From: Hydrurus foetidus
Taxonomy: Eukaryota
Direction of reading: 5' to 3'
DNA length: 25,759 nucleotides
NCBI GenBank assembly: GCA_900617105.1
Contig: UYFQ01000265.1
Coordinates: 124,001-149,759 of the forward strand
Under the pieces are notes generated by a model. The model saw nothing but the letters and a program-made list of their open reading frames with translations, did no database searches and was not told where the DNA came from. Positions within the stretch are counted from its first letter, which is position 1, and each line of letters starts with the position of its first letter. Both the position numbers and the translations under genes were made by a program. Shown here one piece after another: positions 4,201 through 25,758 of the stretch.

Positions 4201-4467
4201 CCGGACGCGGAAGACAGGACTTCACCCTCGCACTACCTGGCCCTCTGAAACGGGTACTAATACCCAACGAAGAGGATGAACGAAAACTCGCTCGGTTCGT
4301 CGGATACGCGGCTAGCACAAGAGACCTCACTCTCCGATTGCGATGCCACCTTCCCCCTAAAGTAACGACCTTCATCGATGCATCCTTCGCAACACACTCC
4401 AACATGAGGTCACATTCAGGGGTATGCATCACACTGGGTACAGGGGCATACTACAGTAAGTCTACAG
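1218..4467 (+). pseudogene. pol: Copia-1 pol (protease, integrase, reverse transcriptase, N-terminal RNase H) with in-frame stops at 3057-3059, 3795-3797 and 4173-4175
   Basis: All in one frame: PR IILDTGA; INT YADIFF / YSDNEKG / HVHIVERTIRYVKE; RT LKARLVGGG, LDIGSAYLN, ALYGCIESALLW, YVDDLL; RNase H FIDASFA. Confidence 0.92.
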
Positions 4468-4727
4468 TGTGGTCTGGGGCGGGGCCTAGGACATTGGTGC
4501 TGTTGTTGGTGGGCGGTTGGTGCAAGCGGTGGGCAAGGAAAAGTGGAAGTCGGTGGAATAGACTTGTGTTAATATCTTACAGTTGAATAGATGAAGGTGA
4601 TGTGTACGCTAAGAGCACTCACGTCATATACGGAACTAAGACCTAAACTGGAATCTGGGCGTAATGGGCCTATTGTAACTAGTATACCTAGACACATTGT
4701 ATCCATATAGGGATGCATAAGGCTACA
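4468..4727 (-). repeat. Gypsy-A 3' LTR (260 bp)
   Basis: Matches 9955-10214 with 4 substitutions by manual comparison; preceded on the minus strand by the PPT. Confidence 0.97.
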
Positions 4728-4747
4728 CTACCCCTTCTTCCTTTTTT
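4728..4747 (-). promoter_or_regulatory. Gypsy-A polypurine tract
   Basis: Minus strand AAAAAAGGAAGAAGGGGTAG abuts the TGTAGCC LTR start. Confidence 0.9.
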
Positions 4748-4824
4748 GAAAATTCACGAATGTGTGATAAGAAATGAAAGAAAAAATATGTGTATATATT
4801 TATAGTATATGAGAACTTGAAACG

Positions 4825-4850
4825 ATTATGTCAGACTTTTACTGACTAAA
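4825..4850 (-). promoter_or_regulatory. Conserved 3'-UTR stem-loop motif (Gypsy-A copy)
   Basis: Minus strand TTTAGTCAGTAAAAGTCTGACATAAT; 25/26 identical to 25279-25304 in Gypsy-B2. Confidence 0.7.
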
Positions 4851-4929
4851 CTCTCCAAAAAAGACCCGTAGGTAAAAAAATAGGAGAGAATCCTCATGGA
4901 TAAAGTTTCAAGAATATATGCATATAAAG

Positions 4930-7900
4930 TCAACGGTGTTGTTTATTGATTAAATTTGTCATGTTATTATGACGTAAATAATCATGAAGTTTATCAACAT
5001 CACGAAGACTTGAATAAGGTTCCCAAGTGTTTTTGTCTGAAGGGTAATTTAACCATTTGACTAAAAACTCTATGTGGGTACGTTGATGTTTGCCACGATG
5101 ATCAAGAATATCTTCAACAAAGTATTCCATGTGATCACGTCGTGCAACATCTAACGGATTTGTGATTGATGGGTCAAATAGAAAAGGTTTCATTGCAGAA
5201 ACATGAAATTCTGATGTTTTCTGAGTGACTAGATCATAAAGTGTGTAACGCGAATTTTCGCCACTAACGACTTTTAATGGGCCTCTCCAATGCGTGTGAA
5301 GACGTGAAGGAGGAGTTCCATCGCGATAGTGCACTAAGACATAAGAGTCTTTTGGATACTCTACATGCTGAAAAATTTGAGACTGACTTTGATGAAGCAA
5401 ATCTGTGCGAAGAAGTTCTTTAGCAGAAGCTTTAAGAAGACTGTCTTGCGTTTTGAGTAGATTGCTCATACGCTTTGACAAAGGTTTGTCATCAGTAACA
5501 TTTCGCTCAGCAGGAGGTAAAAAGATACCTCTATCGAGTTTAAGTACATTTCCGAAAAGAAGTTGAGAAGATGATATTTTTAAACGATCACTGTGATTAG
5601 AATTTAAAATTCGTTGCACAAATGGAAGTGACGTTTTATAATCTTCTAGTGTGACATTATCGAATGTTAATGCACGAAGATGTCTATTAACTTCTTTATT
5701 CATGCGCTCAACAATAGCATTTTCTTCTTTAGAGTATGCTAAAGTAAGACAATGTTGAGTGCCAATAAGAGTTAGAAACTCTCTAATAACTTCGGAAATG
5801 AAGTGTGGCCCATTATCAGAACGGAGTTGGAGAGGTGCGCCGAAACGACCGAAGTGTTGCAAGAGGCATTTAGCTGTTGAAAGTGCTGTAGCATCTTCTG
5901 TATGAAACAGTTCAACCCATCTTGTGAACGTATCGATAATTACGAGTACGTACCCGCCGTCTGGAAACGGTCCTATGAAGTCTATGTTAAGGCATTCCAT
6001 AGGTGTGTAAGTAGAAGTCGAGAAACCATGAGCATGTATTGGTATCTTTAACATACTCATTTTCTGACAACACGAACAGTGATCTATGAACCACCTGACA
6101 TGCTGACGCATATATTGCCATACTATCTTTTTGTCAATGAGACGCTTTAGAGTGCGCTCAAGGCCAAAATGCCCAACTTGTGAATTGTGTACTTTACTGA
6201 TTGTATTGTACTGATCACGTGTTAGTTTGAATTTTTCAATAGTATTAGCAGACATGATTGCATCAGGAGTATATTCCTGAGGGAAATCAACCATGTTATT
6301 GCGACAGAGTCGAGACATCGAATCAGCTATATCATTGTTAGCACCAGGTATATATTCAATTTTAAATGAATATTCGGATAAGGCCATAAACCACCGAACA
6401 ATCATTGGATTTGAATTATCCTTGATGTATAACAAGTTACGATGATCTGTACGCAATGTGAACGTACGATCACGTAATAGCGATTTTAAATACGTGCACG
6501 AATAAAAGATAGCATATGCTTCTTTTTGTATAACAGCCCAACGAAGCTGAGCTTTGTTAAGTGATTTACTGACAAATGCTATGGGCGTCTCTTGACCGTC
6601 AACTAACTGGAAAAGATAGGCACCTACACCATAGTCCGATGCATCAGTGTGCAAGTAAATCGGATCGGTGTCACTTAAAAAGTGCATAGTCGTGCATTTT
6701 GAAATCTCAGATTTGATCAAATTGAATGCTCTGAGAGCTTCTATTGTCCAAGTTATTTTCTTATACTTATTATAGTTAAGAAGCAACTGATGTAACGGGT
6801 ATACAACAGTAGAAGCGTTTCTAACAAAGTCGTGAAAATAATTAACCAATCCTAAAAAACTTTTGAGTTGTTTAGATAGTACTGGTTTAGGAAAATCTAA
6901 GACAGTCCGTATTTTTTCTTGTGACATTCTAAGTCCATCTGCAGATAGAACTTTGCCAACATAGTCTATTTCGGCATAGCCTAGATAACACTTATTCGGT
7001 TTAAGGAATATTTTGTGTTTTCTAAAACGTTCAAACACAAGACGAAGTCTAGAAATAAGTTCGTCAATGTCTTTACCGAAAACATTGCAATCATCTATGT
7101 ACATTTCGCATATAGAGTATATCAGCCCTGCTAACACAACAGTCGTCATAATCTGTTGGAAATAGGAGGGTGCTTGTTTAGGCCCAAAGGGTAAACGAGT
7201 GAATTGATATACTCCGCAGAAAAGTATGAATGCAGTATAAGCACGTGCAGCGAGTGTAAGTGGTGCTTGATGGTACCCTTGAGTGAGGTCAAGTACAGCA
7301 AACACTTTTGCTTTATGTGCACCTATTCTACGCAACATCTCACCGATGTGTGGAATAGGATGTGATTTATCTTCGGTACAATTGTTGAGATTCCGAAAAT
7401 CAATACACATGCGCTTAGTTCCATCAGATTTTGGAACTAGTAAAACTTGGCTATAATAAGCCGCGTTTGATTTTTCAACAATATTTTGTTTTTCAAGTTT
7501 TTTAATTTGACTGAGAATGTCAGCTTGATCAACTGTTGATTTAGCCCATGGAGGTTGTCTATTTTTAGGAACTCTCCATTGGTCGTCATTGACATGAAAG
7601 TCAAACGGTGGAATATCAGCAGGAGTGGCCGAAAGTTCACTGCTAAATATATCCTTGAATTCGTGTACTAGTAACCGAAGTTTATTTTTCTGATCTTCAT
7701 CACCTGCTAAGTTTATTAGCGAGAGTGGGTCAGTATCAGGAAATTCATCTATCCAAGGTGAAAACGAGTCCTTGATCGAGTCGTCGATTTCGTCCTCATC
7801 AGGGGGCACAGCCTCAAAAAGTCTTTCAGACTCTTGTATTAGTGAAGCTAGAATAACGTGTGTTTGGGTTACTGCCGGTTTCACCTTTTGGGTTAAAGGA

Positions 7901-9852
7901 TCGACCTTTGGGGAGCCATCAGAGGGTTGCAACTTCTCCTTAGGCTGACAGCCACACGTTATATCCACTTGTTCAGAAGATAAAACTTCCGCTAATGAGG
8001 TAGTGCTTGATGAAGCATTGGCAGATATTTGATCGGGGAAACGTGAAAATAAATTCAATTCGCGAATTGTTTTTCGTCCCACTATTAGATCAAATTTCGA
8101 ATCGTTTAAAACATAAGCCGTGATTTGAAAAGTATAATAATTATTTAAATCAGGGCAAAAATAAGAAAGAGTTAAGTCTATAGTGTCAGAAATATCATAA
8201 CAATGATTATCTAATCCACTACAAACTTTACACAATTTCTTTGAAGAGTTAGAAACGAATTGTGTGAAATTATGATTAGTTATAATGCGGCGATGTATAA
8301 AGTTGCCAGCAAAAGAGCCGGTGTCCAGGAGAGTAAAGACTCTATTACTTTTTTCCAGCATAACCTCCTGTGAGAGGGGAGATACGAAGAAAGGAATAAG
8401 TTCTGGATCATCGGAAAGAATAGATGATGAATTTAGGTTGCATAGTTGCTCACCTTTGTGTTTCTTCGCAGCGTTTGTCGAGTCTGCTGTTGAAGTAGCA
8501 GGTTTTGACGAAGAAGAAGAAGAAGACGATGAAGAAGAGGTCGATGTCTTAGGTAAAGTTGGAATAAACTTAGCCTTTGAATCGACTTTCAACAACTGCT
8601 TATGACCCTCAGAGTTGATATAGGGTGCGTCTGTACTGTTATAGTACGGAGACGTAGTGTAGAAACACGTGGCGACGAAATGGCCAAGTCTCCCACAACC
8701 TGTGCACAGAGGTCTTTCGAATTTGTCAGACTTGTCTGATTGCACAGATTGTTCGCTCTCTCGTGGACGTTTTTTGATTTTGTCCTGAGAGGAACGAGGA
8801 GGAGCTTTGATTTGGCGAGAGTGATCACCATACAAAGGAGAGACATCAATGAACCGTAAGGCATCAATTGATTCTCGTAGCTTAGCAAGCTGCGCAAGCC
8901 ATACGAATCGAAAGTCTTCGATTGTAATGAGTCTTGGCGTTGTATTGTTAAGACTACGCTGTAACACTGCTCTCCAATTGATAGGTTCGACAGGCAACTT
9001 ATCGATGAGAATTTTGGTTGCCTGAAGTTGGAGAGCGGGTGTTGCATCAGGGAATCCATCAACAATATCAGCTAAAAGCTGATCTGTCTTGTCTTCCACT
9101 GATTTATCCTTCAGGTCGAATTGAAGTGCGACCTGAGAGACAGTTTCAATGAAACTCAGCTTGTCAGTTCGATTGACAGCTGATGTAGGAACTGTGAGAT
9201 TGAGTTCTCTACAGAACAATTGATTCGACCAATGTTTCCAATTGTTACAGGAGTCGCGACGATCGGGATCAGTTGCAAACTTACGCTTGAGAAGCGTTGT
9301 AAACGATTGATGGTTGGAAACATGGATTACATCAACTGGTCTAAATGGAGTTCCATTAGAAAGGAGGACCTCCATTACCCGTAGTACTTCCTGACGAGAG
9401 GGCACGGCGCTCAACTTAGGAGCTCTCTCACCCGTTTGCACATAGTGCTGAGGTGGTGCCATCGAACGTGGAATCTCAGCAATAGCTGGTGTCGCAGACG
9501 AATCTGGTGTCGCAGACGAATCTGGTGTCTCAGCCGAAGCTGGTATCTCAGCCGAAGCTGGTGTCGCAGTCGAAACTGGTGATAACGTTAGAGCGAATAA
9601 AGCAGATAAAACAGGAACATCAAGGACAGACGAGACCGCAGGCTCCGAATTCCGCTGAGGAATCGGTGCAGACAGGTCGCCGGCGGGGTCCTGAGCCGCA
9701 GGTGGCCCAGGAGACTCGATGTTATCTCCTCCACGATTGTGGTGCTCCTCGTAACGTTGTCGGAAGGCGACGGCGACAGCTCTAGGGGGCTGTCGTTGTC
9801 GGCGAAGGGAGTTGATGGTGCTAATCCTCTTGTCCTGGCGTCGGAGAGCCAT
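4930..9852 (-). CDS. gag-pol: Gypsy-A Gag-Pol polyprotein (Gag, CCHC, aspartic protease, RT, RNase H, integrase, chromodomain); first ATG at 9852, frame open from 9921
   Basis: CTGCGRLGHFVATC; LLDTGS; RMCIDFRNLN, LDLTQGYHQ, LPFGPKQAP, YIDD; TDASDYGVG; H-x5-H...CSCC; IDFIGP / SDNGPHF / IVERMNK; WRGPLKV; YFVEDILDHRG...FLVKWLNY...NTWEPY. No internal stop. Confidence 0.96.
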   Translation of the reverse strand: MALRRQDKRISTINSLRRQRQPPRAVAVAFRQRYEEHHNRGGDNIESPGPPAAQDPAGDLSAPIPQRNSEPAVSSVLDVPVLSALFALTLSPVSTATPASAEIPASAETPDSSATPDSSATPAIAEIPRSMAPPQHYVQTGERAPKLSAVPSRQEVLRVMEVLLSNGTPFRPVDVIHVSNHQSFTTLLKRKFATDPDRRDSCNNWKHWSNQLFCRELNLTVPTSAVNRTDKLSFIETVSQVALQFDLKDKSVEDKTDQLLADIVDGFPDATPALQLQATKILIDKLPVEPINWRAVLQRSLNNTTPRLITIEDFRFVWLAQLAKLRESIDALRFIDVSPLYGDHSRQIKAPPRSSQDKIKKRPRESEQSVQSDKSDKFERPLCTGCGRLGHFVATCFYTTSPYYNSTDAPYINSEGHKQLLKVDSKAKFIPTLPKTSTSSSSSSSSSSSKPATSTADSTNAAKKHKGEQLCNLNSSSILSDDPELIPFFVSPLSQEVMLEKSNRVFTLLDTGSFAGNFIHRRIITNHNFTQFVSNSSKKLCKVCSGLDNHCYDISDTIDLTLSYFCPDLNNYYTFQITAYVLNDSKFDLIVGRKTIRELNLFSRFPDQISANASSSTTSLAEVLSSEQVDITCGCQPKEKLQPSDGSPKVDPLTQKVKPAVTQTHVILASLIQESERLFEAVPPDEDEIDDSIKDSFSPWIDEFPDTDPLSLINLAGDEDQKNKLRLLVHEFKDIFSSELSATPADIPPFDFHVNDDQWRVPKNRQPPWAKSTVDQADILSQIKKLEKQNIVEKSNAAYYSQVLLVPKSDGTKRMCIDFRNLNNCTEDKSHPIPHIGEMLRRIGAHKAKVFAVLDLTQGYHQAPLTLAARAYTAFILFCGVYQFTRLPFGPKQAPSYFQQIMTTVVLAGLIYSICEMYIDDCNVFGKDIDELISRLRLVFERFRKHKIFLKPNKCYLGYAEIDYVGKVLSADGLRMSQEKIRTVLDFPKPVLSKQLKSFLGLVNYFHDFVRNASTVVYPLHQLLLNYNKYKKITWTIEALRAFNLIKSEISKCTTMHFLSDTDPIYLHTDASDYGVGAYLFQLVDGQETPIAFVSKSLNKAQLRWAVIQKEAYAIFYSCTYLKSLLRDRTFTLRTDHRNLLYIKDNSNPMIVRWFMALSEYSFKIEYIPGANNDIADSMSRLCRNNMVDFPQEYTPDAIMSANTIEKFKLTRDQYNTISKVHNSQVGHFGLERTLKRLIDKKIVWQYMRQHVRWFIDHCSCCQKMSMLKIPIHAHGFSTSTYTPMECLNIDFIGPFPDGGYVLVIIDTFTRWVELFHTEDATALSTAKCLLQHFGRFGAPLQLRSDNGPHFISEVIREFLTLIGTQHCLTLAYSKEENAIVERMNKEVNRHLRALTFDNVTLEDYKTSLPFVQRILNSNHSDRLKISSSQLLFGNVLKLDRGIFLPPAERNVTDDKPLSKRMSNLLKTQDSLLKASAKELLRTDLLHQSQSQIFQHVEYPKDSYVLVHYRDGTPPSRLHTHWRGPLKVVSGENSRYTLYDLVTQKTSEFHVSAMKPFLFDPSITNPLDVARRDHMEYFVEDILDHRGKHQRTHIEFLVKWLNYPSDKNTWEPYSSLRDVDKLHDYLRHNNMTNLINKQHR
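9486..9581. repeat. 18-bp tandem repeat (~5.3 copies) in the Gypsy-A Gag N-terminal region
   Basis: Units CTGGTGTCGCAGACGAAT x2, CTGGTGTCTCAGCCGAAG, CTGGTATCTCAGCCGAAG, CTGGTGTCGCAGTCGAAA, then CTGGTG; encode hexapeptides such as SAETPD / SSATPA. Confidence 0.9.
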
Positions 9853-9938
9853 TGTCTTCGACTGTCGGATATGAGTGATGGGATTTGAAAATGATGGCGT
9901 GGAGAAATGAATTTCTCGCAAAAAAAAGCTTTGGTATC

Positions 9939-9961
9939 GACCAAATATCGATATTGTGGTC
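9939..9961 (-). promoter_or_regulatory. Palindromic element at the PBS position of Gypsy-A
   Basis: Minus strand GACCA-C-AATATCGATATT-TGGTC; the perfect 12-mer (9944-9955) includes the terminal A of the 5' LTR. Confidence 0.8.
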
Positions 9962-10214
9962 TGGGGCGGGGCCTAGGACGTTGGAGCTGTTGTTGGTGGG
10001 CGGTTGGTGCAAGCGGTGGGCAAGGAAAAGTGGAAGTCGGTGGAATAGACTTGTGTTAATATCTTACAGTTGAATAGATGAAGGTGATGTGTACGCTAAG
10101 TGCACTCACGTCATATACGGAACTAAGACCTAAACTGGAATCTGGGCGTAATGGGCCTATTGTAACTAGTATACCTAGACACATTGTATCCATATAGGGA
10201 TGCATAAGGCGACA
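9955..10214 (-). repeat. Gypsy-A 5' LTR (260 bp)
   Basis: Direct repeat of 4468-4727, upstream of the minus-strand ORF. Confidence 0.97.
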
Positions 10215-10218
10215 ACAG

Positions 10219-10589
10219 CTCAGAAGCTCAACACAACCTCTTCCTGTGAAGCAGAGCTTGTTGCTCTATCCAAGGGTCTCCAACAGAGCCTACGGAGCTC
10301 GTACTTTATTGAGAATCAGGGATACCCTACCTCACCCATCACCGTTCTCCAAGACAACCAGTCTACCATCAAACTGGTGGAGAGCGGGAGACCTACCTCG
10401 GAGCTCTCAAGGCACATCCGCATCGGATACTTCTGGATCCACGATCTCATTATCAAGAAAGTAATCAGGCTAGTGTATTGCCCTATCATGATCGCTGATG
10501 TCATGACAAAGCCTCTGCAGGGATCACTTTTCCGTACTATGCGAGACAGAATCATGGGCTCCGTCCCATGCCCTATGACAGAGGAATAG
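10219..10589 (+). pseudogene. pol: Copia-1 RNase H C-terminal remainder
   Basis: AQKLNTTSSCEAELVAL, QDNQSTI, SRHIRIGYFWIHD, MIADVMTKPLQG. Joins in frame to ...YYSKST at 4467 once the insertion and one ACAG are removed. Confidence 0.92.
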
Positions 10590-11630: not shown

Positions 11631-14260
11631 ATGCCTCCGAAGAAAGCTGCTGTGGCGTCTGTGAAATCCGAACCGAGATGCGTTCTTCAGTTCGGCCGAG
11701 ATAACAACGCCATTGAGTGGCGCGAGGCCATGTATAATATCGCCACCGGTCTGTACGGCACGACGGGAATGATCTTTCACCTTAACAGGTCATACAAGTT
11801 CCCACCGATCCAACAGCGAGATTACCACCCAAACTTCATCCACCAACCCGCAGCCACAGAAGGCGCAGCAGCTGACGGTAAAGATGAGGACGACGGTAAT
11901 GAAACTGACGGCAGCAACGCCGAGACAGTCCAAGGCGAAGATGAACCTGAAGCCGCAGTAGAAGAGTTCACTGAACAGTCCATCAACAAGCTCAGAGAAG
12001 GAGCATACGATCGCCGTCAAAAGGCAAATGAGCAGCAGAGACTGGATGAGGGCAAGATGTGGGCTCTCATGTGGGAACTGATGTCACAGGTATCACAGAG
12101 CAAGGTCAGGGAAGATCCACAGTTCGAAACCGCCAGACTGTCTCTTGACAGCGTTCGGCTATGGAGAATCATCCAGAGATCTCACCTCACCCATGTGTTC
12201 GGTGACCATGACAACATGACGTCTATCAACCTACATGACCAACAGTTGCGCTATAACGCACTGCGTCAGGGTGATCGTGAGCCTATTGCCTAGGTTTGAT
12301 AATCAGCTGAAGGCGAACAGTGGAGTCGTCATGACCGACATTGGTGAGCCACTACGAGCACTGGGCTTCATCAGTAAGTTGGACACAAAAAGGTACAGTG
12401 GCATGCTTACTGTGATGCGTAACAATGCGTCCTAGAACCTACCAGGTGCATATCCGGACACACTAGCAAGTACCTTCCGCACCGCTTCCACCTGGATCCG
12501 TGACGGCGCACTGATACCCCTTGGGAGCAACCACCAACACCACTCGGCGTTCTTCGCCGATGCCGTACACGTAACAAAAGCTAAGGATACTGAAAAAGGG
12601 AAGACCCCTTTGGCAAAGAAGGATAAGGCTTCGACGGAAAACAGAAAAAGGTCGTCAGTCGAAACAATACTGTGCTACGTCTGTGGGAAACTGGGCCACT
12701 ATGCACGAGATAGCGAAGATAGAAAGGGAGACACTGCTCTCTAAACTACTACAGAAGATATCGACGTTGACGAAGAAGGTAAGAGTGAGTTCGCGTTCAT
12801 CACAGTTAGTGAGTTGGTTCTGTTCTCACAATCTCATGTGCTGCTCGACAACCAGGCTTCTGTGAGCATCTTCAGCAATCGGGACCTCCTTACGAACGTG
12901 AAGCGATCAGAGAACCAGATTGTCTTAAACGGAGTTCAGTCAGATGCTGAGGGAGTGCGAGTCAGCGAAGAAGTACATTTCAATCAGATGGGAAACGTCT
13001 ACTACAGCGAGAAAGCAACTGCCAACATCCTGTCGTTTGCTGCCATGGTCGACGGGGGTGCTCAGATTCTATACAATCAACAAGAGAGTCGGTTTACTTT
13101 ACAGTCAAAAGGTAAAAGCAACATATACAGCTTTTACAGATAAAGCATTCCAGGGAGTGAAGGTCGCTTTTACGTATGTGATGTGAGATCCATGGTTTCG
13201 AATCAAGTAACTAGCCACCCAGGAGTGGAACACGCGATGGTCCAGACTGTATCCGACAACCTAAAGCTCTATACTAAGCGAGAAGTGGCGTCAGCGAAGA
13301 ATGCTCGAGAGCTAATCGCTCGAATGGGATACCCATCGGTGGAGGAAGCTATCGCAATGCCCAGAGACGGCAGCGACTTCAGTGTCACCGAGTATGACTT
13401 CCGTGTGGCCGATGCTATCTGGGGTCAAGTCATTGCATCTATCAAGGGGAAAACAACGAAGCGAAAGTCTCAGGCACCGAGTCTCACCAACAGTCGTTCA
13501 GCAGCAGCAGAATCTCTCGATCGACATTATGTTCGTCGAGCAGGTGGCGTTACTAGTCGCTGTATCTCACCCACTTGATCTTACCCCTGGTGTTATATTG
13601 GAATCTGCAGATACAGGCAAATCCTCAAGGACTGCAGAGTCGGTGAAGAAGAGTCTGGACATCTTACTATCAATCTTGAAGTCTCGGAACTTCATTGTAT
13701 CAGTCATCATGTCGGATGGGGAAGGAGCACTTGGGAAAGTGATCCCATACGTGGAGAAGTTGGCCGTAGGGGTGGACGTCAGTGGAGCTGGTGGACATAT
13801 CGCACGGATCGAACGACGCATTGGGATGATCAAAGAGAGAATACGATCTCAGATTGCCGGGACGTTGCCGTTTGTGCTCACTATCAACGGTCTGGCAATG
13901 CTTGCACTATATTGCATCTCTCGGATCAACTATCAACATTCTGGTACGCGTCCCGGAGGGGTCACTCCACGAGAAGCGTTCTCCGGACAGCAGGTTGCGG
14001 GGAATAGAGATTTCAGGGTGGCCTTTGGGGACTATTGTCAGTGTACAGTAGCGAACACCGACCGTTCGATGAATACACGAACTGATGACTGTATAGTGTA
14101 CTTGCCAACGGGCAACCGCACTGGATCTGTCAAAATGCTGTCAATCGCGACCAACGAAATCATCGTAAGGGACAATTTTAAGATACTACCTATGCCAGAA
14201 TCTTATAAACCAGCTGAACGCACTTGCAGCGAAAGATGATCGATTCCTTACGAGGATTCC
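11631..14260 (+). pseudogene. gag-pol: Copia-2 gag-protease-integrase, with several frameshifts and stops
   Basis: YNALRQGDREPI; FISKLD; degenerate knuckle CYVCGKLGHYARDS (~12673-12714); PR VLLDNQAS and ANILSF; INT LSIDIMFV / MSDGEG / HIARIERRIGMIKER; FKILPMP. Confidence 0.88.
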
Positions 14261-15940
14261 GCAAAGCATATGAATACTGTAAAAATGCGATGTGAGGGGT
14301 GTAACGGTGCCTGATAGTAATCAGCGATTAAATCCATCACACCAAAAACATCCGGTTTTTTGTTACCGATCCTCTCAAAAAGATGTTTGATATTCGGCAG
14401 GGGAAAAGAGGCGGGAGTAAGGCACTTATTAAGAGGCTTGTAATCGATGCAGGTTCGAAATTTACCGGGTGACTTAGTTGCGATTACAGGATGACTGTAA
14501 TAAGCAGCATCTGACCGCTCTATATCTCCCAACGCAAGCATCTTATCGAGATTCTCCTTAAGAGCAACCTCCTTAGTCGATGACTGGGGACGTACCGGCG
14601 TACGGTTTTCGTCTTTTTCCCACAACTCAAGTGGGATGTTAATCTCAAAAGGTTTGAGTGACGCTGGTTTCTCAGCTAATTGATCACTAAAAATGTCTGA
14701 ATATTCAGGACAGAGCTCTCGGAGCTTCCTCTGAAAGCTTTCATCTCCCTCAAAGGTAATCTCTTTGAGGAAATCCTCTGGCCCCTTGGGCAAGTCATCT
14801 TGACTAGGTTTCTCAGCTAAGAAGGGTGCGAACGTGTCTATCTTGCCATCGTCAATCTCGTCAACTGAGAGTGCGACACCACTGGGCCATAAAGGCTCAG
14901 TGACATAGTCTAAGGTATCAGAGTCCTCAGAAGTGTCTGTAGGGGTGGGAATCTGGTCGCCACCTAGATGCGGTGTATCACCCGTACGTTTTGCGAGAAT
15001 AGGAGTGACACTATTCAGTCGCTCACAACCTACAACATCACAGGGACCTTGGGTCGCGACTCCCTCAATATCCATCTGAGTATCGTTACATGTCGACATT
15101 GTATGGACACAAGAGACGTTGCTCTTCGAAGAAGATTGACCATGTAATATGCTCTTCTTATTTGGATACTCGATAGATCCGTGTGTTTCTCTCTTTTTAG
15201 AGGAAGGTTTACCGCCTGGATATTTCAGCTTATCGTAGTGAGGTGTTAAAGAATCAACTTTGGCTGTATCAGGTTCGGCACTCAACGCTATCATACGACG
15301 CGTATACTTATGCTGATACATCGGATCAAGTTTCAACAAAGCTTCTTTTCTTTCGAATTCGCGTCTGCGAGCATCGCTCTTCTTTTTATTTTCCGCGCTA
15401 AGTTCTGGCGATATGCCGAAAGCAACGGAGTTAAAGACCAAAAATCATACTTATTTACCGTCTTACGGCTAAACAAAATCTCAATTTCGGTTTTTCTATT
15501 TACCCTCATGGGTAAGCTGATGCTCTGGGATTCGCCATCGTAAGAATTAAAAAGGATTTTTAAATCACAAATTTCGTTATTTAAATAACACTGACCATCA
15601 AGGCCGCTACAAACAGTTATGGCTTTAAGAGCAGGATAACAAAGGTGGGTAGCGTTAAGTTTTTCTAACATCGTAAAAGAAAGAAAATGCCCAAAATAAT
15701 TCGCGGTGTCCAGCACGGCATTCCCCACGGCCCGCAACTCCTTGGCTGGGCCTGTCTTTCCTTTATCCTGCACGATAACAGTTACGTTGAGGTGGTGAGA
15801 AGGAAGGATAGATGGGTCATGCAAAAATTCTTCAAGAACAATTACATGCGGCTGTTCTTCGACATGAACATCTATCAGATTATGGGTATCATCGTCAAAG
15901 ACAGCAGCCACGTCATCAAGACGAAGGTTCTTACCTTGAT
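14259..15940 (-). pseudogene. pol: Gypsy-B1 protease, spacer and partial RT (frameshifted, truncated)
   Basis: VLDTANY, VCSGLDGQC, FRTCIDYKPLN, GVMDLIADYYQAPL; ends before LPFG/YxDD. Confidence 0.9.
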
Positions 15941-16046
15941 CCTGACCTGAACTGGAGGAAGAAGGAGAGTTGTTTCCCTGTGGGGGGTTGTATCGATTAC
16001 CCCTGCCCCCGGATCCACGACCCTGGTTTTGGTTCGCATTGGGGTT

Positions 16047-17420
16047 CTATCCTCCCCTTTGCTTACCTCTAAGCCCTCCTTGGTTGCCATGGTAACCACC
16101 TCCCTGGTTACCGTGGTTCCACTGGTTTTGGTTATACCCCCCTTGTCCCTGGTTGGAACGATCTGAACCACCAGAGGCATTGGGGTTGTAACCGCCACCC
16201 TGGCTGTATTTGGGGCGCTTGTTGTCGTTAGACATCAAGTAGGGTTTAGAACCCTCAGGGATTAACAGAACGCGATCTTCGTATCTGGGGAGTACGAGAT
16301 GTTGTTGCCATTCTGTAAACCCTACCGCGGCCCAAGCCATCCCCAATGTAGAATCCTCCCAATCAGCCGAATGGTCTGTATTGGAGTCGGAGTAATACAG
16401 AATGGGGCACTCATTCAACATGTGCGACTTAGACCCGCACGAGCGGCACGCTAGTAAGTTCGGTACGAACGGCACTTCCGTCGACGCACGGACAGCGAGT
16501 CCGTGCTGAGTCGGAATGTACGAGCCCGTTGTACGCACAGTCGTTGTGAGTGATCTAGACGTCACGGGTGGAGTAGGAGAGGGTGCCTTAACACTAGCTC
16601 TGCCTGTCTCTTTCTTACCAACCTCAGGCGGATTGGCTGATGGAGGGAACGAGTACACCACATCCGGGTTGCCGTAGCTCTTGATGAGGTTCGTCATCGA
16701 CCTAGCCTCAGCCAGAACCTGACCAATGCGTAGCATTGTCTTTAACCACGTCCACGTGTTAGGTGGTGAGGTGTCAGCTGCTTTCGCTCTCAGGTAGTCT
16801 TGTTGAATTTGACTACCCTTAGCTAGGCGCTTCTCCAAGATCGAAATGAGCTCAGCATGCTGAGTCGCAGTCAGAGGGCCCTTGGACCTCTCATAGTTGC
16901 TCAGAAGTTCATTGTAGCGAATGAATGTGACATTCTCATGATCGTGGTTAGCGATCTGGTAATGGAAGGGAACTTGGCTAAAACTCCCTGCCAAAGTACA
17001 CTCCCCCAAACCATTTGGGCAGAAGTACTTCACTACAAGAGTGGCTACCTGAGTCACCGATAGAATGGTAAACCAATCATGACGTTGCCGACGATCTATG
17101 ATGTTGAATTTAGGATCGACTAAGATTTTGAAGTTCAATAGTTCGATTGTCTGCTTCTGCATGCAGTCAGTCACCTTCATGTTGGGGTTTCTTTGAGCCT
17201 GTTCGTAGAACTCAATGGCATCAGCTTCATCGATGAAGTTTTGTCTGAGCACAAACACCTCACTCTGGAGTTGCATCGTCAGAGAGTTGTTTGCAAACAA
17301 CGAGTTGTTCAATGGTAAAGACTCATTGAGTGCAGCCAACGCTGCCAGGCGAGCAATCTCTTCCTCAGGAGGTGGAGCAATCTCAGGAGGTGGAGGAGTT
17401 TGAGGTGCGGCGGCGGACAT
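16047..17420 (-). pseudogene. gag: Gypsy-B1 gag (457 codons to a probably premature TAG)
   Basis: Knuckle CRSCGSKSHMLNEC and G/N/Q-rich tail; colinear with 19795-21180; homologous coding sequence continues past the stop. Confidence 0.85.
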
Positions 17421-17952
17421 ATCGCCACTAGATATGTATCTCGCTTAAACACAGCAGAGATCAATCCCCCGTTGTCAATTTTTTTGCAAGGGGTTTGCCT
17501 TGTTCGCTAACGGGTACTGTAACGTCAGTAACAATGCGTTAGAGAATTCTAACCAACTCTTGAACTGAAAAGTTCAATGGCGTAAGAGCCAAATTTTGAA
17601 TGGTGAGAAATTTGGGTACCCAAAAAGGTAGAAGACGCTGTTCTTCAGCGACCAAAAGACGTCTCTTGACTAATCTTATGTCTTCGGTGATGAATCTGTG
17701 GTTCAAACAGCCGGCAGAACAGGTCTTTAATGAATCTCGGGAAGGATCTTTCAACTTCGACCGGAAACTTAAAGAATGGAAGAGCCCAAGCTTAGGGATT
17801 CCAAGAAAGCAGGTATGCTGAATTTCTCTGACTTTGTTCTCTGAGCTCAAAGCTGCAAGAGAAGTCGGCTTATAGCTGACGAGCAGTTACTCAGAAGTCT
17901 TATCTACACGTTGGGACGAGCAGATGGACTGAGAGGTAGAAGAAGAAAGATT

Positions 17953-17976
17953 GGACGAATAGCGCTATTGTAGTCC
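17953..17976 (-). promoter_or_regulatory. Palindromic element at the PBS position of Gypsy-B1
   Basis: Minus strand GGAC-TAC-AATAGCGCTATT-C-GTCC; perfect 12-mer at 17958-17969. Confidence 0.78.
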
Positions 17977-18171
17977 GGATAGAAGTAGGTCGATGTAGAG
18001 AAGGTGGTCGTTAGTTACAGGCTATGCTAGAAGCTAGGATAAACTTTTACGAGTCGGCTGCAGCTAGCTAGCAGTGTGCAAGGATGTAAGTGTACTGTAG
18101 GCGGAAGGATCGGGTTGATCGTGACGAGGTCTGGTACGGCCCGTAGGCCCGGTATACCCGGCACGACCACA
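17969..18171 (-). repeat. Gypsy-B1 5' LTR (203 bp)
   Basis: Minus strand TGTGGTCG...GGACTACA; alignable to the B2 LTRs, e.g. TATACCGGGCCTACGGGCCGTACCAGACC. Confidence 0.9.
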
Positions 18172-19026
18172 ATAGATCACAAATGCCGAGATTCATGCCT
18201 ACCACACCACCAAATGCAGAACTGAAAATTCGAGCAGAGGCTCGACAGGAACCAGCCAATATGGAGGTGCATCAACTGGTCCTAGCTGACACTCCACCTG
18301 TTGGGGATATTATCCCTCCAGAGATAGGGGGCGTAAAAACATTAGTGGAAAGTAATTTAGAGCTACATCCGGAGGGATATGACCAAACCAGTCCAACGGA
18401 CTCACACGATGCAGAGCAAGGCATCGGTCAGCACATAGCTGACACATCGAGTGACAGCGTGTCACCCGATCCGGTCGGTGAGCATCCCCTTACCCCATCC
18501 CTTCTGTCCCCCACTCCCACTACTGTACACACTAATACAGATGAGAGCGTAGAGCGTCACTCACAGGAGCAAGTGATGGACTAATTCAGGACGGGTATTG
18601 GTGCACTCAAGAAACCATCAGAGCAGGGAGCAACATTCGTCACGTTCAACACACCAGTAGTGACCACATCGACTCAGCGAGTGTCATGCACGGAGTCCAT
18701 TACAGCAGTACTTGCGAAGCGCAAGAGTTAACTGCACGTAGAGCTTAGTGCGAATGTGAGTGTGAGAGAGGCGCTCAGAACTAGGGGTGACGATGCGAAA
18801 CTAGTCATCAACAAGAAATTACGACAAATGATAGACAAGAAGGTGTGGGCACCTGTCATGTAAAGTAGACTCACTGCTGGTGAGCGTGCGAGTATCATCA
18901 GATCGTCGATGTTCCTGAAGAGGAAGACTCATTCGGACGGGAGGTTCGACAAGTACAAAGCGAGACTGGTTGCAGCAGGCGATCAGCGGGACAAGAAACT
19001 CTACGATGACTTGTCCTCCCCCACAG
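18172..19026 (+). pseudogene. pol: Copia-2 INT-RT linker and N-terminal RT fragment (RT part not in the ORF track)
   Basis: Manual translation from 18753: NVSVREALRTRGDDAKLVINKKLRQMIDKKVWAPVM*SRLTAGERASIIRSSMFLKRKTHSDGRFDKYKARLVAAGDQRDKKLYDDLSSPT, paralleling Copia-1 LKARLVGGGD...DTSSPT. Confidence 0.88.
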
Positions 19027-19233
19027 TGTGGTCGGATCGGCTATACCGGGCCTACGGGCCGTACCAGACCTAGTCCCGATCCATCCGATCCTACCGCCTA
19101 CTGTACACATACATCTCTAGCGCAGCTGCTAGCTAGCTCTAGCCTACTCGTAGAAGTTCTTCCTAGCTTCTAGCTTAGCCTGTAACTAACTAACACCTCT
19201 ATCTCTATCGACCTACTTCCTATCCGGGCTACA
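19027..19233 (+). repeat. Gypsy-B2 5' LTR (207 bp)
   Basis: Matches 25552-25758 with 5 substitutions. The right end is inferred from the CA terminus and by analogy with Gypsy-A, because the window ends 1 nt after the 3' copy. Confidence 0.88.
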
Positions 19234-19249
19234 ATAGCGCTATTAGTCC
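19226..19249 (+). promoter_or_regulatory. Palindromic element at the PBS position of Gypsy-B2
   Basis: GGGCT-AC-AATAGCGCTATT-AGTCC; perfect 12-mer at 19233-19244. The 3' LTR version GGACT makes the outer stem fully Watson-Crick. Confidence 0.8.
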
Positions 19250-19794
19250 ATTCTTTTCTCTGCTACTCCTCATTCCATCTACTCGTCCCAACCTGTAGAT
19301 AAGACTTCTGAGCTTCTGCTCAACGACTTTCGAGTCGTTTTCTTCTGCAGCCATTGGCTCAGGGAACCTTAGTCTAAGTTAGAGAAAGTCAGATTAACTG
19401 CTTTCTTGGAATCTCCTTGCTTGGGCTCTTCCAAACTTGACATTTTGGTCGAAGTTGATTTATCCTTCCCAGAAGTCATTTAAGACTTGCTCCGCTGGTC
19501 GATTGAATCACAGATTCATCACCAGAGACACAAAGTTAGTCTATAGACTTCATTTCGTCGACGTCGAGCAACGTCTTCTACCTTAAAGGTATACCATCTT
19601 TTCTACCACTCTAAATTTGGCTTTCACGCCATAGAACTTTTCAGTTCAAGAGTTGGTTAGAATCTCTTTATTCGTTGTTACTGACGTTACAGTACCCGTT
19701 TGTGAACGAGGCGAAGCTCTTGAAAATTTTTCTGAGCAGGGGTTATCGATCTCCATTGACTTTCAGTGAGATTTACATCGATAAGTGATTAGAC

Positions 19795-22700
19795 ATGTCA
19801 TCACCACCTAACCCAAACCCTGATCCATCTCCTGAAGAGGAGGAGATTGCACGTCTGGCAGCTTTAGCCGCGCTCAACGATTCGACTATCTCAATGTCGA
19901 ACTCGCTGTTCCCAGCTTTCCCCTCGACGATGCAACTCCAGGGTGAGGTGTTCGTCCTCAGGCATAACTTCATTGATGAAGCTGATGCGACTGAGTTCTA
20001 CGAACAGGCTCAGAGGTACCCGTTGATGAAGCTAACCGATTGCATGCAGAAGCAGGCAATCGAGTTACTTAATTTCAGGATCATGATCGATCCTGAATTT
20101 AACATCATCGATAGACGACAACGCCATGATTGGCAGACTAAATTGTCGGTACTTCAGGTAGCCAAACTGATAATAAAGTACTTCTCGCCAAATGGTTTGG
20201 GAGAATGTACTCTGGCAGAGAGCTTTAGCCAAGTTCCCTTCCATTATCAGATCGCTAACCACGATCATGAGAATGCCACATTCGTACGTTACAACGAACT
20301 TGTGAGCACTTATGAGAGGTCTAAGGGACCATTATCAGAGACTCAGCATGCTGAGCTCATATTGATTTTGGAGAAGCGCCTAGCCAAGGGTAGTCAAATC
20401 CAACAGGATTACCTGAAAGCGAAAGCTGCTGACAATACCCCACCTCATACGTGGTATTCGACTATGCTACGCATTGGTCAGGTTCTTGCCGAGGCTAGGG
20501 CAATGATGAACCTCATCAAAAGCTATGGCAACCCGGACACGGTGTACTCGTTTCCTGCATCAGCAGTTCCACCAGACGTTGGTAAGAAGGAGACGAGTAG
20601 AGCGAGTGCTAAAGCACCCTCACCTACACCCTCCGCTTCGTCGAGATCAGTCACTGCTACTGTGCGTACCCCTAGCTCGTACGTTCCGACGCAGCACGGA
20701 CTCTCTGTCCGTGCTTCCACGGAAGTACCGCTCGTACCGATGTTTCGTCCGTGCCGGTCGTGCGGAGCTACGTCGCACACGTTGGCAGACTGCCCCATCT
20801 TGTATTACTCCGACTCCAACACGAATCACCAAGTTGAGTGGGAGAGTTCTACAGTGGGGATGGCTTGGGCCGCGGTGGGGTACTCTGAATGGCAACTCAA
20901 CCTCGTCCTTCCAGGATACGAGGAACGAGTTCAGTTCTACCCCAGAGGTTCTAAACCTTACTTGATGTGTAACGACAACAAGCGCGCCAAGAACAGCCAT
21001 GGTTCTGGGAACCACTCCAACACCTCGGATGGTTCAGATCGTTTCAACCAGGGTCAAGGGGGATCTCCCAAAACCAATCTGGTTATGGTAACCAGGGTAA
21101 CCAGGGGGGTGGTAGAGGTAAGCAAAGGGAAATCAAAACCCCAATGCGAACCAAAACCAGGGCCGTGGGTACGGCGGTAAGGGTAAATACAACCCCCCGC
21201 AGGGACACAACCCTCCTCCCAACACTCAGCCGGGACAGAACCAGGGTAAGAACCTTGCCCATGACTGCGTGGCTGCCACTTTCGATGATGATGTCTTTAA
21301 TCTGACTGATGATCATCTCGAAGTGCTGCCACTTGTACCTATTCGTGAAGAATTTTTACATACCCCTTCCACCCTCGCTTCTCACCACCTTAACGTTACG
21401 GTTATTGTGCAGGATAAGGACAGGACAGGCCCAGCAAGCGAGCTGCATGCCGTAATGGATACGGCCAATTATTCTGATAATTTTATTTCAAATGATATGA
21501 TTGAAAAATTAAATGCTACTCATTTATGTTATCCTGCTCTTAAAGCCATAACTGTTTGTAGCGGTCTCGATGGCCAATGCTACTTAAATAACGAAATTTG
21601 CGATTTAAAAACCTTTTTCATTCTTACGATGGTGAATGCCATAGCATCAGCCTACCCATGAGGGTCAATCGGAAAACCGACATCGACATTTTATTTAGCC
21701 GTGAAACGGTAAATAAGTATGATTTTTGGACGTTAACTCCGTTTGCATTCGGCATTTCTCCTGAGCTAAGTGCTGAGAATAAGAGAAAGAGCGATGCTCG
21801 CAGACGCGAATTCGAAAGAAAAGAAGCTTTGGATAAACTCGATCCGTTGTTTCAACACAAATATACGCGTCGTATGATAGCGTTGGGTGCCGAACCTGAT
21901 ACAGCCGTAGTCGAGTCTTTAACACCTCACTACGACAAGCTGAAATATCCAGGCGGTAAACCACCCTCTAAAAAGAGAGAAACACACGGATCTATCGAGT
22001 ATCCAAACAAGAAGAGCATATTGCATGGTCAATCTTCTTCGAAGAGCAACGTCTCTTGTGTCCATACAATGTCGACATGTAACGATACTCAGATGGAGAT
22101 CGAGGGAGTCGCGACCCAAGATCCCTGTGGTGTTGTAGGTTGTGAGCGACTGAATAGTGTCACTACTATTCTCGCAAAACGTACGGGTGATACACCGCAC
22201 CTAGGTGGCGACCAGATTCCCACCCCTACAAACACTTCTGAGGACTCTGATACCTTAGACTATGTCACTGAGCCTTTATGGCCCAGTGGTGTCGCACTCT
22301 CAGTTGACGAGATTGACGATGGCAAGATAGATACGTTTGCCCCCTTCTTGGCGGAGAAACCTAGTCAAGATGACTTGCCCAAAGGGCCAGAGGATTTCCT
22401 CAAAGAGATTACCTTTGAAGGAGATGAAAGCTTTCAGAGGAAGCTCCGAGAGCTCTGTTCTGAATATTCAGACATCTTCAGTGATCAATTAGCTGAGAAA
22501 CCAGCGTCCCTTTGAGATTAACATCCCACTTGAGTTGTGGGAAAAAGACGAAAACCGTACGCCGGTACGTCCCCAGTCATCAACAAAAGAGGTTGCTCTC
22601 AAAGAAAACCTTGACGAGATGCTTGCATCGGGAGTTATAGAGCGATCAGATGCCGCTTATTACAGTCATCCTGTAATAGTAACTAAGTCACCCGGTAAAT

Positions 22701-25210
22701 TTCGAACCTGCATCGATTACCGGCCACTTAATAGGTGTCTTAAGCCGGCCTCATTCCCGTTACCAAATATCAAACACCTCTTTGAGAGGATCGGTAATAA
22801 AAAACCGGATATTTTTGGTGTGATGGATTTAACCGCTGGTTACCATCAAGCACCGTTACACCCCGCACACCGCATTTTTACGGCATTCATATGCTTTGCG
22901 GGGGTATTTCAGTTTACGAGACTGCCCTTTGGTCCGTGTCGAGCCCCCTCTTACTTTCAAGAGCAGATGGTAACGGCGGTCCTCTATGGCCTTATCTATC
23001 ATTGTTGCGAGATGTATCTCGACGATTGTATAGTATATGGCAAGGGTGAAGCAGAGTTTCTAACTAACTTGAAAAAAGTTTTTGCAAGATTTAGACTTAA
23101 GGGTCTAAGACTCAAAGCTAAAAAATGCCGTTTCGGCCTTCCACGTATTGAATACGTTGGCAGAGTCGTTGACAAAGATGGTTTATCCATGTCAAAAGAG
23201 AAGATAGAAACAGTTTTAAACTTTTCTATACCTAAAAATTTAACCTTACTCAGGTCATTTTTAGGTTTAGCAAACTATTTTCGACAGTTTGTACCAATGC
23301 ATTCCACTTTGGTTAAGCCAATGCAGGATATGATTGATCACTCTGCTCCGAGACGTTCTGCTGTAGTTTGGACTCAAAAGAGCACCAACTCATTTGTTGA
23401 CACAAAGATTGCTATATCTCGTTGTCCATTAATGTACTTCATTGATGACAATAAGTTAGACATCCGCTGTATACAGACGCGTCCGACTTTGGTATCGGTG
23501 GTGTCTTATTCCAAGTTGTTGGTGCCATTTGGCAACCAATTGCTTTCATTAGCAAATCGTTGACACCCACACAAATAAGGTGGTCTACGATACAAAAGAG
23601 GCTTATGCCATCTTCTATTGTTGTACACAACTCGATTATCTAATCAGAGATCGTACGTTCACTATCCATACGGATCACTTGAACATAACATATATGAAAC
23701 AAAATCCTACCTCAATGGTGGCGAGATGGTTCATTGCTATGCAAGAACTAGATTTTACCGTGGTATTCGTACCCGGTACTTCGAATGTTTTGGCAGACGC
23801 ACTGTCAAGGCTATGTCCTAATCTGACAGAAATTGCTCTGCCGTTACGAACAGAAGAATTGGAATTACTTCCTACTTCATCATCTTCTTTCACTGTATCA
23901 GCTCTGACGGTCATAGAACCGGCTTCAGACGATCAGTTAGAATACATTCAAATGTGCCACAATGCAATTGTCGGTCACAACGGCGTAGACCGTACCCTTA
24001 CTCGGTTGTTTAGTTTACAACAAGTTTGGAAACACATGAAACAACATGTACGTACGTTCATACAGAACTGTCCGTGTTGTCAAAAGTTGAGTGCAAAAGA
24101 TCCTAAGATCAATGCGTCTCATTTTGCAACTTCAAATTATGCTATCTTCGATACGCTAAATGTTGACTATATTGGTCCATTTCCTGACAAAGGTTATATC
24201 CTTGTCATCATCGATACATTCACACGATGGACAGAATTGTTCTGGTGTGCAGACGCAGATGCTAAATCAGCAGCTGACTGTTTGCTTGCGCATTTTGGTC
24301 GATTTGGATCACCAAATATGATTAGATCTGATCGAGGATCACATTTCGCAAATGAATTGATCAAAGAATTCTTAGATCTTTGTGGACACCACATAATCTC
24401 ACCCTTGCTTACTCGAAACAAGAGAATGCAATTGTTGAAAGAGTCAACAAAGAGGTGAATAGACACTTAAGAGGTTTAGTTTTTGATAAACAAACCCTTG
24501 AGGGATATGCTAAGTCAATCCCATTCGTGCAACGTATTATTAACAGTTCAGTTAATAGACGCACAGGTGTCTGCCCCGCTCATTTATTGTTTGGGAACAA
24601 ACTTGATTTGAATCGTGGTATTCTCACTCCACACTTAAGTGTCGGAACACATTCAAGATCAACGTACATATCAGATTTGATAAGTGTACAAGACAAAGTA
24701 CTTGAAACTGCGGTTCAAACTTTGTTAAAAGCTGATGCTAAAAAAGCCGCGTCAGCTGAATCAGCGACTGTGTTCCCCGTGGGGTCATATGTCTTATGCC
24801 GATACACTGATCGACCTCCAACTCGATTACATACTAAGTGGCATGGCCCTTACTGTATTGTCTCCTTTAAGGGGTCCGAGTACGTTCTCGCAAATCTTGT
24901 AAATCACAAGACACGAAGTGTTCACGTCAAAAATTTGAAAATATTCAATTATGACCCAGAGGTAGATATACCTGCTGACACTGCTCGTCGTGATTACATG
25001 GAGTTCGTGGTTGAGAAAGTTCGGGGTCACGCAGGTGACACCAAGAAACCGACTACAATGTCGTTCCATGTTAAATGGCTCAACTACGATGACTCTCATA
25101 ATACATGGGAGCCGTGGAAATCACTACGGCTCTGTGAAGCACTCCATGATTATTTACGGGATAATAAAATGAAACATTTCATTCCCAAAAACATTGAGAC
25201 ATCAGCCTAA
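19795..25210 (+). pseudogene. gag-pol: Gypsy-B2 gag-pol (Gag, PR, RT, RNase H, INT, chromodomain) broken by about seven frameshifts
   Basis: CRSCGATSHTLADC; MDTANY; FRTCIDYRPLN, MDLTAGYHQ, LPFGPCRAP, YLDD; YTDASDFGIGG (shifted frame), ADALSRLC; CHNAIVGH...CPCC; VDYIGP / SDRGSHF / IVERVNK; WHGPY; FHVKWLNY...NTWEPW. Confidence 0.94.
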
Positions 25211-25278
25211 GTTGCTGATCTCGAACGTATTATCTTTTGAAGATTTTTCCTAATTTTCCCTCTATGAGGTTTTATGGT

Positions 25279-25304
25279 TTTAGTCAGTAAAAATCTGACA
25301 TAAT
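25279..25304 (+). promoter_or_regulatory. Conserved 3'-UTR stem-loop motif (Gypsy-B2 copy)
   Basis: TTTAGTCAGTAAAAATCTGACATAAT; GTCAG/CTGAC stem with a 7-nt A-rich loop; shared with Gypsy-A. Confidence 0.7.
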
Positions 25305-25530
25305 TACGTATCGAGGTCTCGTGCGCAAGTACATGGTACTAGGCACCCACCTTATCGCCTTAGACCGACCCACCACTCTGTCTATTTTTATAGATTTTTA
25401 TTTTTGTACATTTAAGTTTTTTGAGATTTACATTTTTGTAATCTTTTTCTTTATTCTTCCTTAGTTAGTTTAAGCTGTATTAGATTTTTGTACAAAACGT
25501 GATGGTCGCGTCATAGATTCTTTTTCTTCG

Positions 25531-25551
25531 AAAAAAGATAAGTGGGGGTAA
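25531..25551 (+). promoter_or_regulatory. Gypsy-B2 polypurine tract
   Basis: AAAAAAGATAAGTGGGGGTAA abuts TGTGGTC. Confidence 0.88.
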
Positions 25552-25758
25552 TGTGGTCGGATCGGCTATACCGGGCCTACGGGCCGTACCGGACCTAGTC
25601 CCGATCCATTCGATCCTACCGCCTACTGTACACTTACATCTCTAGCGCAGCTGCTAGCTAGCTCTAGCCTACTCGTAGAAGTTCTTCCTAGCTTCTAGCT
25701 TAGCCTGTAACTAACTAACACCTCTATCTCTATCGACCTACTTCCTCTCCGGACTACA
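25552..25758 (+). repeat. Gypsy-B2 3' LTR (207 bp)
   Basis: Direct repeat of 19027-19233. Confidence 0.92.

Follow-up and report, generated by a model that had tools for sequence, protein, structure and literature searches.

One question raised by this locus is how a Gypsy retrotransposon starts reverse transcription when a palindrome occupies the position of its primer-binding site (PBS). The DNA analysed (hereafter the window, 25,759 nucleotides of contig UYFQ01000265.1 from Hydrurus foetidus) contains three chromodomain Gypsy elements, named A, B1 and B2, amid Copia-like fragments. The primers known for LTR elements are whole tRNAs, tRNA halves and, in elements of the Tf1 type, a fragment of the element's own 5' end (PMC6317226). 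The initial annotation of the window claimed that in all three elements a perfect palindrome starts at the last A of the 5' LTR, and both the coordinates and the sequences proved right (Table 1).

The gag-pol of element A encodes a CCHC knuckle, a protease-like motif, reverse transcriptase (RT), RNase H with its motifs, integrase and a chromodomain. Pfam analysis of A and B2 gave the order RT, RNase H and integrase with a C-terminal chromodomain, which is that of the Ty3/gypsy chromoviruses, and the closest solved relative was Ty3 Gag-Pol (E 1.7e-70). The remaining chromovirus hallmarks, namely LTR ends of the TG...CA type, a polypurine tract and a target-site duplication (4-bp CTGT in A), were found complete in A, and in B2 without a visible 3' flank. 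The pol of B2 showed 45–59% identity to that of A, and B1 (14259-18171, reverse strand) was 81.5% identical to B2 across 3945 nt. Neighbours in the atlas were either unnamed or loosely oomycete or basidiomycete.

Table 1. Positions in the window of the three Gypsy elements, their parts and their palindromic sites.
Feature	Position	Strand	Description
Element A	4468-10214	-	Gypsy, 260-nt LTRs, single gag-pol ORF
A 5' LTR	9955..10214	-	260 nt; 98.5% identity with 3' LTR; CTGT duplication at 10215-10218
A palindrome AATATCGATATT	9944-9955	-	terminal A 9955, 10-nt core 9954-9945, T 9944; candidate primer-binding site
A site with outer stem	9939..9961	-	GACCA (9961-9957)/TGGTC (9943-9939), C 9956 bulged
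A gag-pol ORF	4930..9852	-	one ORF counted from first ATG; frame open from 9972
A polypurine tract	4728..4747	-	
A 3' LTR	4468..4727	-	then CTGT duplication (4464-4467); flank beyond, without palindrome
B1 5' LTR	17969..18171	-	about 203 nt; 84.8% identity to B2 3' LTR
B1 palindrome AATAGCGCTATT	17958-17969	-	terminal A 17969, core 17968-17959
B1 site with outer stem	17953..17976	-	GGAC/GTCC around TAC-by-C internal loop
B1 internal region	14259..17968	-	frames broken; ends abruptly within RT; window without B1 3' LTR
Element B2	19027-25758	+	Gypsy, LTR pair 97.6% identical
B2 5' LTR	19027..19233	+	207 nt; 97.6% identity to 3' LTR
B2 palindrome AATAGCGCTATT	19233-19244	+	terminal A 19233, core 19234-19243
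B2 site with outer stem	19226..19249	+	GGGCT/AGTCC, one G-U pair, AC unpaired (or CA, other register)
B2 gag-pol	19789..25210	+	six overlapping frame pieces: RT, RNase H, integrase, chromodomain
B2 polypurine tract	25531..25551	+	
B2 3' LTR	25552..25758	+	last base one short of window end

Element A is nested within a Copia-like element (292-4467 plus 10215-10589). RVT_2 matches cover 3060-3797 and 3798-4175, as pieces that in-frame stops separate, and the right flank (10215-10589) has by eye the look of a Copia RNase H, with no Pfam match. B1 and B2 stand back to back, separated by about 855 nt (18172-19026) that are Copia-like by eye and show an RT-type motif near 18950-18990. The 5' part of the A gag contains an 18-nt tandem repeat (9463-9581), whose translation is rich in Ala/Thr/Pro/Ser. 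Near the end of pol, A (4811-4990) and B2 (25141-25320) are 69% alike over about 180 nt despite LTRs that cannot be aligned, and many relatives have similar motifs after the stop codon; this stretch is possibly a conserved 3' RNA element. On the forward strand ACAG forms the duplication of A (4464-4467 and 10215-10218) and also the 4 nt before B2 (19023-19026), and CTGT follows the 3' LTR of one relative (L062) as it does in A, four other flanks being different. These shared flanks possibly reflect a weak target preference, or chance.

In element A the LTR end was fixed without recourse to the palindrome, as the two LTRs (98.5%) diverge directly past the terminal CA. The 3' LTR of B1 is absent and that of B2 lies at the edge of the window, so the LTR ends of the B elements rest on homology and on the terminal inverted repeat. 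Other palindromes of at least 10 nt are numerous in the window, and therefore it is the position of the palindrome, not its mere presence, that matters; the blind-centre test described below is in support of this. A perfect palindrome of 10-14 nt followed 0.3% of the 59,905 CA/TA positions in these sequences (true sites included), which indicates that the palindrome at the LTR end is more than chance. As claimed in the initial annotation, the A and B palindromes are set apart by one double change (T-A to G-C), and the LTRs of the two families gave no alignment (best blastn E 0.15). An outer stem with a single bulged C had also been described; the stem was found in all three elements and, though enriched, is weak, and only in A is exactly one C bulged.

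The polyprotein of element A was aligned with 44 of 120 listed homologues, leading to 79 loci (1 viral, 57 from metagenomes and 21 from genomes). These relatives are environmental contigs, some of them within prokaryote-labelled assemblies. A total of 47 candidate sites were collected, three in the window and 44 in 42 loci. One of them (L022) was rejected, since this L009-family sequence is a 3' LTR and its palindrome, which lies in a different register, is due to chance. The other 46 sites correspond to 37 distinct ones with 20 different cores, which follow the LTR end and are 8-14 nt long. The core length was 10 nt in 31 of the 37 distinct sites and different in six, and the LTR ended in CA in 34 and in TA in three. 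Collapsed short-read contigs are the source of most related sites, which were initially chosen as palindromes; automatic calling of LTR ends through terminal inverted repeats was too noisy and was left unused. No counted site was obtained from the remaining 38 loci (gag/pol coordinates, 15 regions scanned), which begin or end inside the element or show a 3' LTR followed by flank. Among the loci there was no identifiable case of a 5' junction without the palindrome (L047 and L056 could not be judged). In A and in three relatives (L003, L009 and L036) a second LTR copy fixes the LTR end independently; the core directly followed CA in all four, and their 3' or solo LTR copies were without it. The LTR of element A, used as query against five genomes, gave no match.

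Other observations were made on these relatives. Eukaryote-type retrotransposon fragments (L059-L079 and G001-G005) occur in assemblies labelled as bacteria or archaea, which is most likely binning contamination. One subclade (L010:1115-1144, L014:150-179, L015:5931-5960, L016 and L024) keeps a 10-nt palindromic core after a TA LTR end, an end that is apparent only, having been placed without a second LTR copy. A palindrome follows both LTR copies in L023 (359-372 and 6678-6691) and in L025 (508-521 and 6857-6868), as in tandem elements sharing an LTR or in a collapsed assembly, and the two palindromes of L025 differ at the central pair. An extra inverted copy of an L026-type site in L028 was left out of the counts. 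Of 35 LTRs of the clade, 28 contain the motif TGTAA 40-120 nt upstream of the LTR end (in the window at 18016-18020 and 19181-19185). It may be an algal-type polyadenylation signal. Alternatively, it may be a promoter motif (compare PMC3601003).

A covariation test was run on the LTR-end sites of the related families, using a gap-free alignment of 31 of the 46 sites, those with 10-nt cores. The covariation score was 0.542, versus 0.083 in shuffled alignments and at most 0.081 in slid ones. At the two inner pairs all four Watson-Crick types were present, both sides had changed in 18 and 19 sequences, and none of the 31 was unpaired. The innermost of them, which occurs as four pair types, was complementary in all 31 sites and had changed on both sides in 19. 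Since the sites had been chosen as palindromes, the percentage of paired positions is circular; the diversity of the cores, the edge of the palindrome and a blind-centre test escape this circularity. The blind-centre test was run because the aligned sites had been picked as palindromes. Patterns in which the four central bases were left free were used on the five genomes behind the sampled loci, and 19 matches were obtained. The centre was self-complementary in the six matches with a downstream polyprotein (6/6) versus one of the 13 others (p=0.00026). With two previously known sites set aside, the four new ones alone gave 4/4 (p=0.002).

The same was seen between close relatives. In an RT-RNase H tree of 41 rows, built with no named outgroup and leaving out L063, L070 and B1 (short RT coverage), seven sister contrasts were double changes (L003/L009, L007/L012, L057/L058, L030/L026, L038/L044, L015/L010 and L033/B2), with the caveat that in collapsed contigs the RT and the site could originate from two different close families. 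L030 and L026 are near-identical, yet they show a double change at the site. The tree label L058 was wrong (merged with L057), and the true L058 core was taken from the locus. Pairing in register was found in 34 of the 37 distinct sites at the last A of the LTR and fell to 10 of 37 one base outward, a sharp edge, and 30 of the 37 cores begin with ATA. The outer stem is short and variable (at least 3 bp in 24 of 37), with a mean of 2.95 bp versus 2.13 bp with swapped partners (p=0.0002); across the relatives the number of unpaired nt is 1-4 towards the LTR and 0-4 towards the leader. The palindrome is a genuine feature, conserved throughout the clade, and selection acts on its self-complementarity. 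The 20 palindromic cores and the double changes between sister elements thus uphold the proposal that structure, and not sequence, is selected.

Local pairing energies were computed for the dimer and for the hairpin, and were -28.9 versus -6.3 kcal/mol in A and -30.9 versus -5.7 kcal/mol in B2; the heterodimer of A with B2 gave -10.9 kcal/mol. Thirteen ten-base cores gave -8.4 kcal/mol with themselves and -0.3 kcal/mol with each other, several AU-rich cores pairing weakly (-2.6 to -5.6 kcal/mol). According to these calculations, self-pairing is family-specific. Two strands are needed for complementarity at the very centre, and hence the most likely partner of the site is its counterpart on another RNA. 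Covariation of the innermost pair is left unexplained by a fold-back hairpin, which favours pairing between two element RNAs, one of the two arrangements that the initial annotation had put forward.

From the sequence, we consider it somewhat more probable than all other readings taken together that the palindrome is the PBS and that its primer is the same sequence on a second element RNA, freed by RNase H as in Tf1. It is known that the Tf1 primer has 11 nt and is cut by RNase H, and a U5-leader stem reportedly surrounds the Tf1 PBS. The elements described here share with Tf1 such a stem around the site and the element RNA as likely primer. Like Tf1, Tf2 and Tj1, and the Tf1/sushi/Tcn1 chromoviruses, they are also Gypsy elements that lack a tRNA site and whose likely primer site adjoins the LTR, and the ATA start of their cores recalls the Tf1 PBS, which begins with ATAAC (PMC11042837). 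It is likely, then, that these chromodomain Gypsy elements use their own RNA as primer in a Tf1-like manner.

In the mechanism that we propose, a second element RNA would pair through its identical sequence with the palindrome at the primer-binding position, inside the particle and with the help of the CCHC domain of Gag. The RNase H of the element would cut this second RNA just 3' of the core and create the primer end (in Tf2 the primer cut is made by the RT; PMC5341516). The resulting primer, of about 11 nt (terminal A plus core) and ending in UAU, would be extended across the terminal CA of the LTR. Its source might be the partner genome of the dimer or, alternatively, a shorter transcript that begins at the LTR end and supplies its own 5' end; the sequence fits either source alike. 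The second variant would need just the single cut that Tf1 makes, and for Tf2 a transcript start downstream of the LTR has been described (PMC5341516). TATA placement lent this variant no support, as only 1 of 35 has a TATA box at a distance of 20-45 nt upstream of the LTR end. A symmetric cut on both RNAs of the dimer would leave no intact PBS for the second strand transfer, and therefore an asymmetric cut has to be assumed. The weak pairing of AU-rich cores and the variation in core length (8 to 14 nt) also count against the proposed mechanism. In Tf1 cDNA the PBS is copied from the primer (PMC11042837). Here the primer would be the source of the plus-strand PBS and the template that of the minus-strand PBS, so that a single mutation would give a heteroduplex whose resolution could either restore the previous palindrome or create one altered on both sides. 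The rapid change of letters would be accounted for in this way.

A site at the LTR end is the sole place where a minus-strand start still yields a correct LTR end. The PBS position, the ATA start of the cores and the enclosing U5-leader stem argue for priming and not for a dimer alone. The main rival is nevertheless that the palindrome is only a dimerisation or packaging signal, comparable to the retroviral DIS and the Ty1 PAL, in a loop closed by the outer stem, with priming by some other route. The same central covariation and family-specific pairing would be expected without any priming, and the enrichment of the outer stem is also in agreement with it. Moreover, the site shares with DIS and PAL the character of a short self-complementary leader sequence able to join two genome RNAs, and Ty1 dimers have been proposed to form via palindromes (PMC4974528). 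However, DIS and PAL are apart from and additional to the tRNA PBS (a DIS exists alongside a PBS; PMC5445492), whereas here the palindrome stands at the PBS position. A role in dimerisation alone would leave the element without any primer site, and neither the start and sharp stop of the palindrome at the last base of the LTR nor the Tf1-PBS-like start of 30 of the 37 cores would be explained. We regard it as unlikely, although it has to be taken seriously.

Fold-back priming, the other arrangement put forward in the initial annotation, would require that the palindrome form a hairpin in one RNA, that a nick occur 3' of it and that the 3' arm prime on its own U5. A single RNA would suffice for initiation, and in the local folds a stem of 4 bp, capped by a 4-nt loop, is often stacked on the outer one. 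The bases of such a loop should vary freely, yet the two inner pairs are complementary in all 31 aligned sites and change together, and the blind-centre test gave the same result. The hairpins are also weak (0 to -7.3 kcal/mol across the sites), those of B1 and B2 being no better than shuffles (z 0.21 and 0.30). In addition, the four central bases cannot serve both as a hairpin loop and as a covarying stem. This makes fold-back priming improbable.

Self-priming in cis of the Tf1 type, in which the 5' end of the transcript, lying in the LTR, pairs with the site, would agree with the fact that chromodomain Gypsy elements are a group with known self-priming (PMC6317226). In Tf1-type elements the sequence complementary to the PBS lies within the LTR, where the transcript begins (PMC4600332), and a complement of at least 10 nt was taken as the criterion (from PMC6317226). 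Such a complement was found in 1 of 31 (AT-only) and one of 9 nt in 2 of 31, the longest in the three window elements being 5, 5 and 6 nt; the absence of a conserved LTR-internal complement, noted at the outset, was thereby confirmed. Exact complements were slightly longer than with swapped partners (mean 5.6 versus 5.1 nt, p=0.004), but this small excess was gone when G-U pairs and bulges were allowed (p=0.81), there was no common position, and the candidate was rejected. Pairing in cis would also leave the palindromes unexplained. It appears to be largely refuted by the sequence and we give it very little credit. Unlike the Tf1-type PBS, the site here is its own complement, and the primer would be that of another RNA molecule.

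A host tRNA, tRNA half or other host RNA as primer would be the usual mechanism, and half-tRNA primers exist (PMC6317226). However, TGG, the mark of a PBS for the 3' end of a tRNA, was present within 0-5 nt of the LTR end in none of the 37 distinct sites, and neither a tRNA gene nor an Rfam match was detected in the window. Twenty different cores are too many for one host primer, and cores that stay palindromic through the changes between sister elements would need as many host primers, which makes this explanation scarcely credible. Just as implausible is a role as DNA, either as a site for a dimeric protein or as a cruciform at the LTR edge, since the perfect dyad symmetry and the lack of G-U type variants in the core agree with it, but a protein site would keep its letters and the inner four are free, the lack of G-U is partly due to the picking of sites and also fits copying from a primer, and priming is left unexplained.

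A palindrome that includes the last A of the LTR and replaces the PBS has been described as the Conserved Hairpin Site of the fungal GalEa Ty1/copia elements (Donnart et al. 2017, PMC5445492). A PBS role is proposed there without a mechanism, and the authors say that no model fits. The elements described here are similar to GalEa in the lack of a PBS, in a palindrome comprising the final A of the 5' LTR (paired in 34 of the 37 sites) and in a bulge or internal loop at the LTR junction. They differ in that GalEa belongs to Copia and they are Gypsy elements, as judged from domain order and RVT_1, and in that the GalEa palindrome has 10 nt and two main sequences in 85% of the families, versus mostly 12 nt and 20 cores here. 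Furthermore, a second arm, inverse-complementary and 9 nt long, follows 12-41 nt downstream in GalEa. Such an arm was searched for and rejected, because a match of at least 7 nt was found in none of the 37 sites (p=0.53-0.58); in element A only, a 6-nt partial copy of this arm allows an alternative hairpin (z -2.4). These elements thus fail both the Tf1 test (LTR complement) and the GalEa tests (second arm and Copia clade).

For Gypsy elements of the diatom Thalassiosira pseudonana, Repbase entries reportedly name a 12-bp palindrome, situated where the internal portion begins (its 5' end), as the means of self-priming. No such description was found in the literature searched or in the main text of PMC2806351. 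The GalEa palindrome has been cited for bivalve TRIMs (PMC6934838), and one chromovirus with neither a tRNA nor a self-priming site has been reported (PMC2864245). No paper on a palindromic PBS in Gypsy was found in the literature searched, a coverage outside which most subscription journals and Repbase Reports lie. The palindrome as such is not entirely new, a like one being published for the GalEa Copia elements (PMC5445492).

A self-complementary primer site fits none of the known types of LTR priming as described. The 20 natural variants, together with an element A that has one open ORF and near-identical LTRs, make the proposal directly testable with paired mutants. If it is true, RT priming from a short RNA palindrome might serve as a tool, elements without a detected PBS could be re-annotated, and dimer formation and priming would be one and the same step. 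We put forward, tentatively and with slightly less than even confidence, that self-priming in trans is a distinct priming mode of LTR retroelements. The PBS would be its own primer by means of a second element RNA, the palindrome would be renewed in each round of copying, and its letters would act as a family code by which an element pairs with and primes only its own kind. Such a mode would have arisen independently in Gypsy and in Copia, and it would make these elements free of the host tRNA and of silencing by tRNA fragments.
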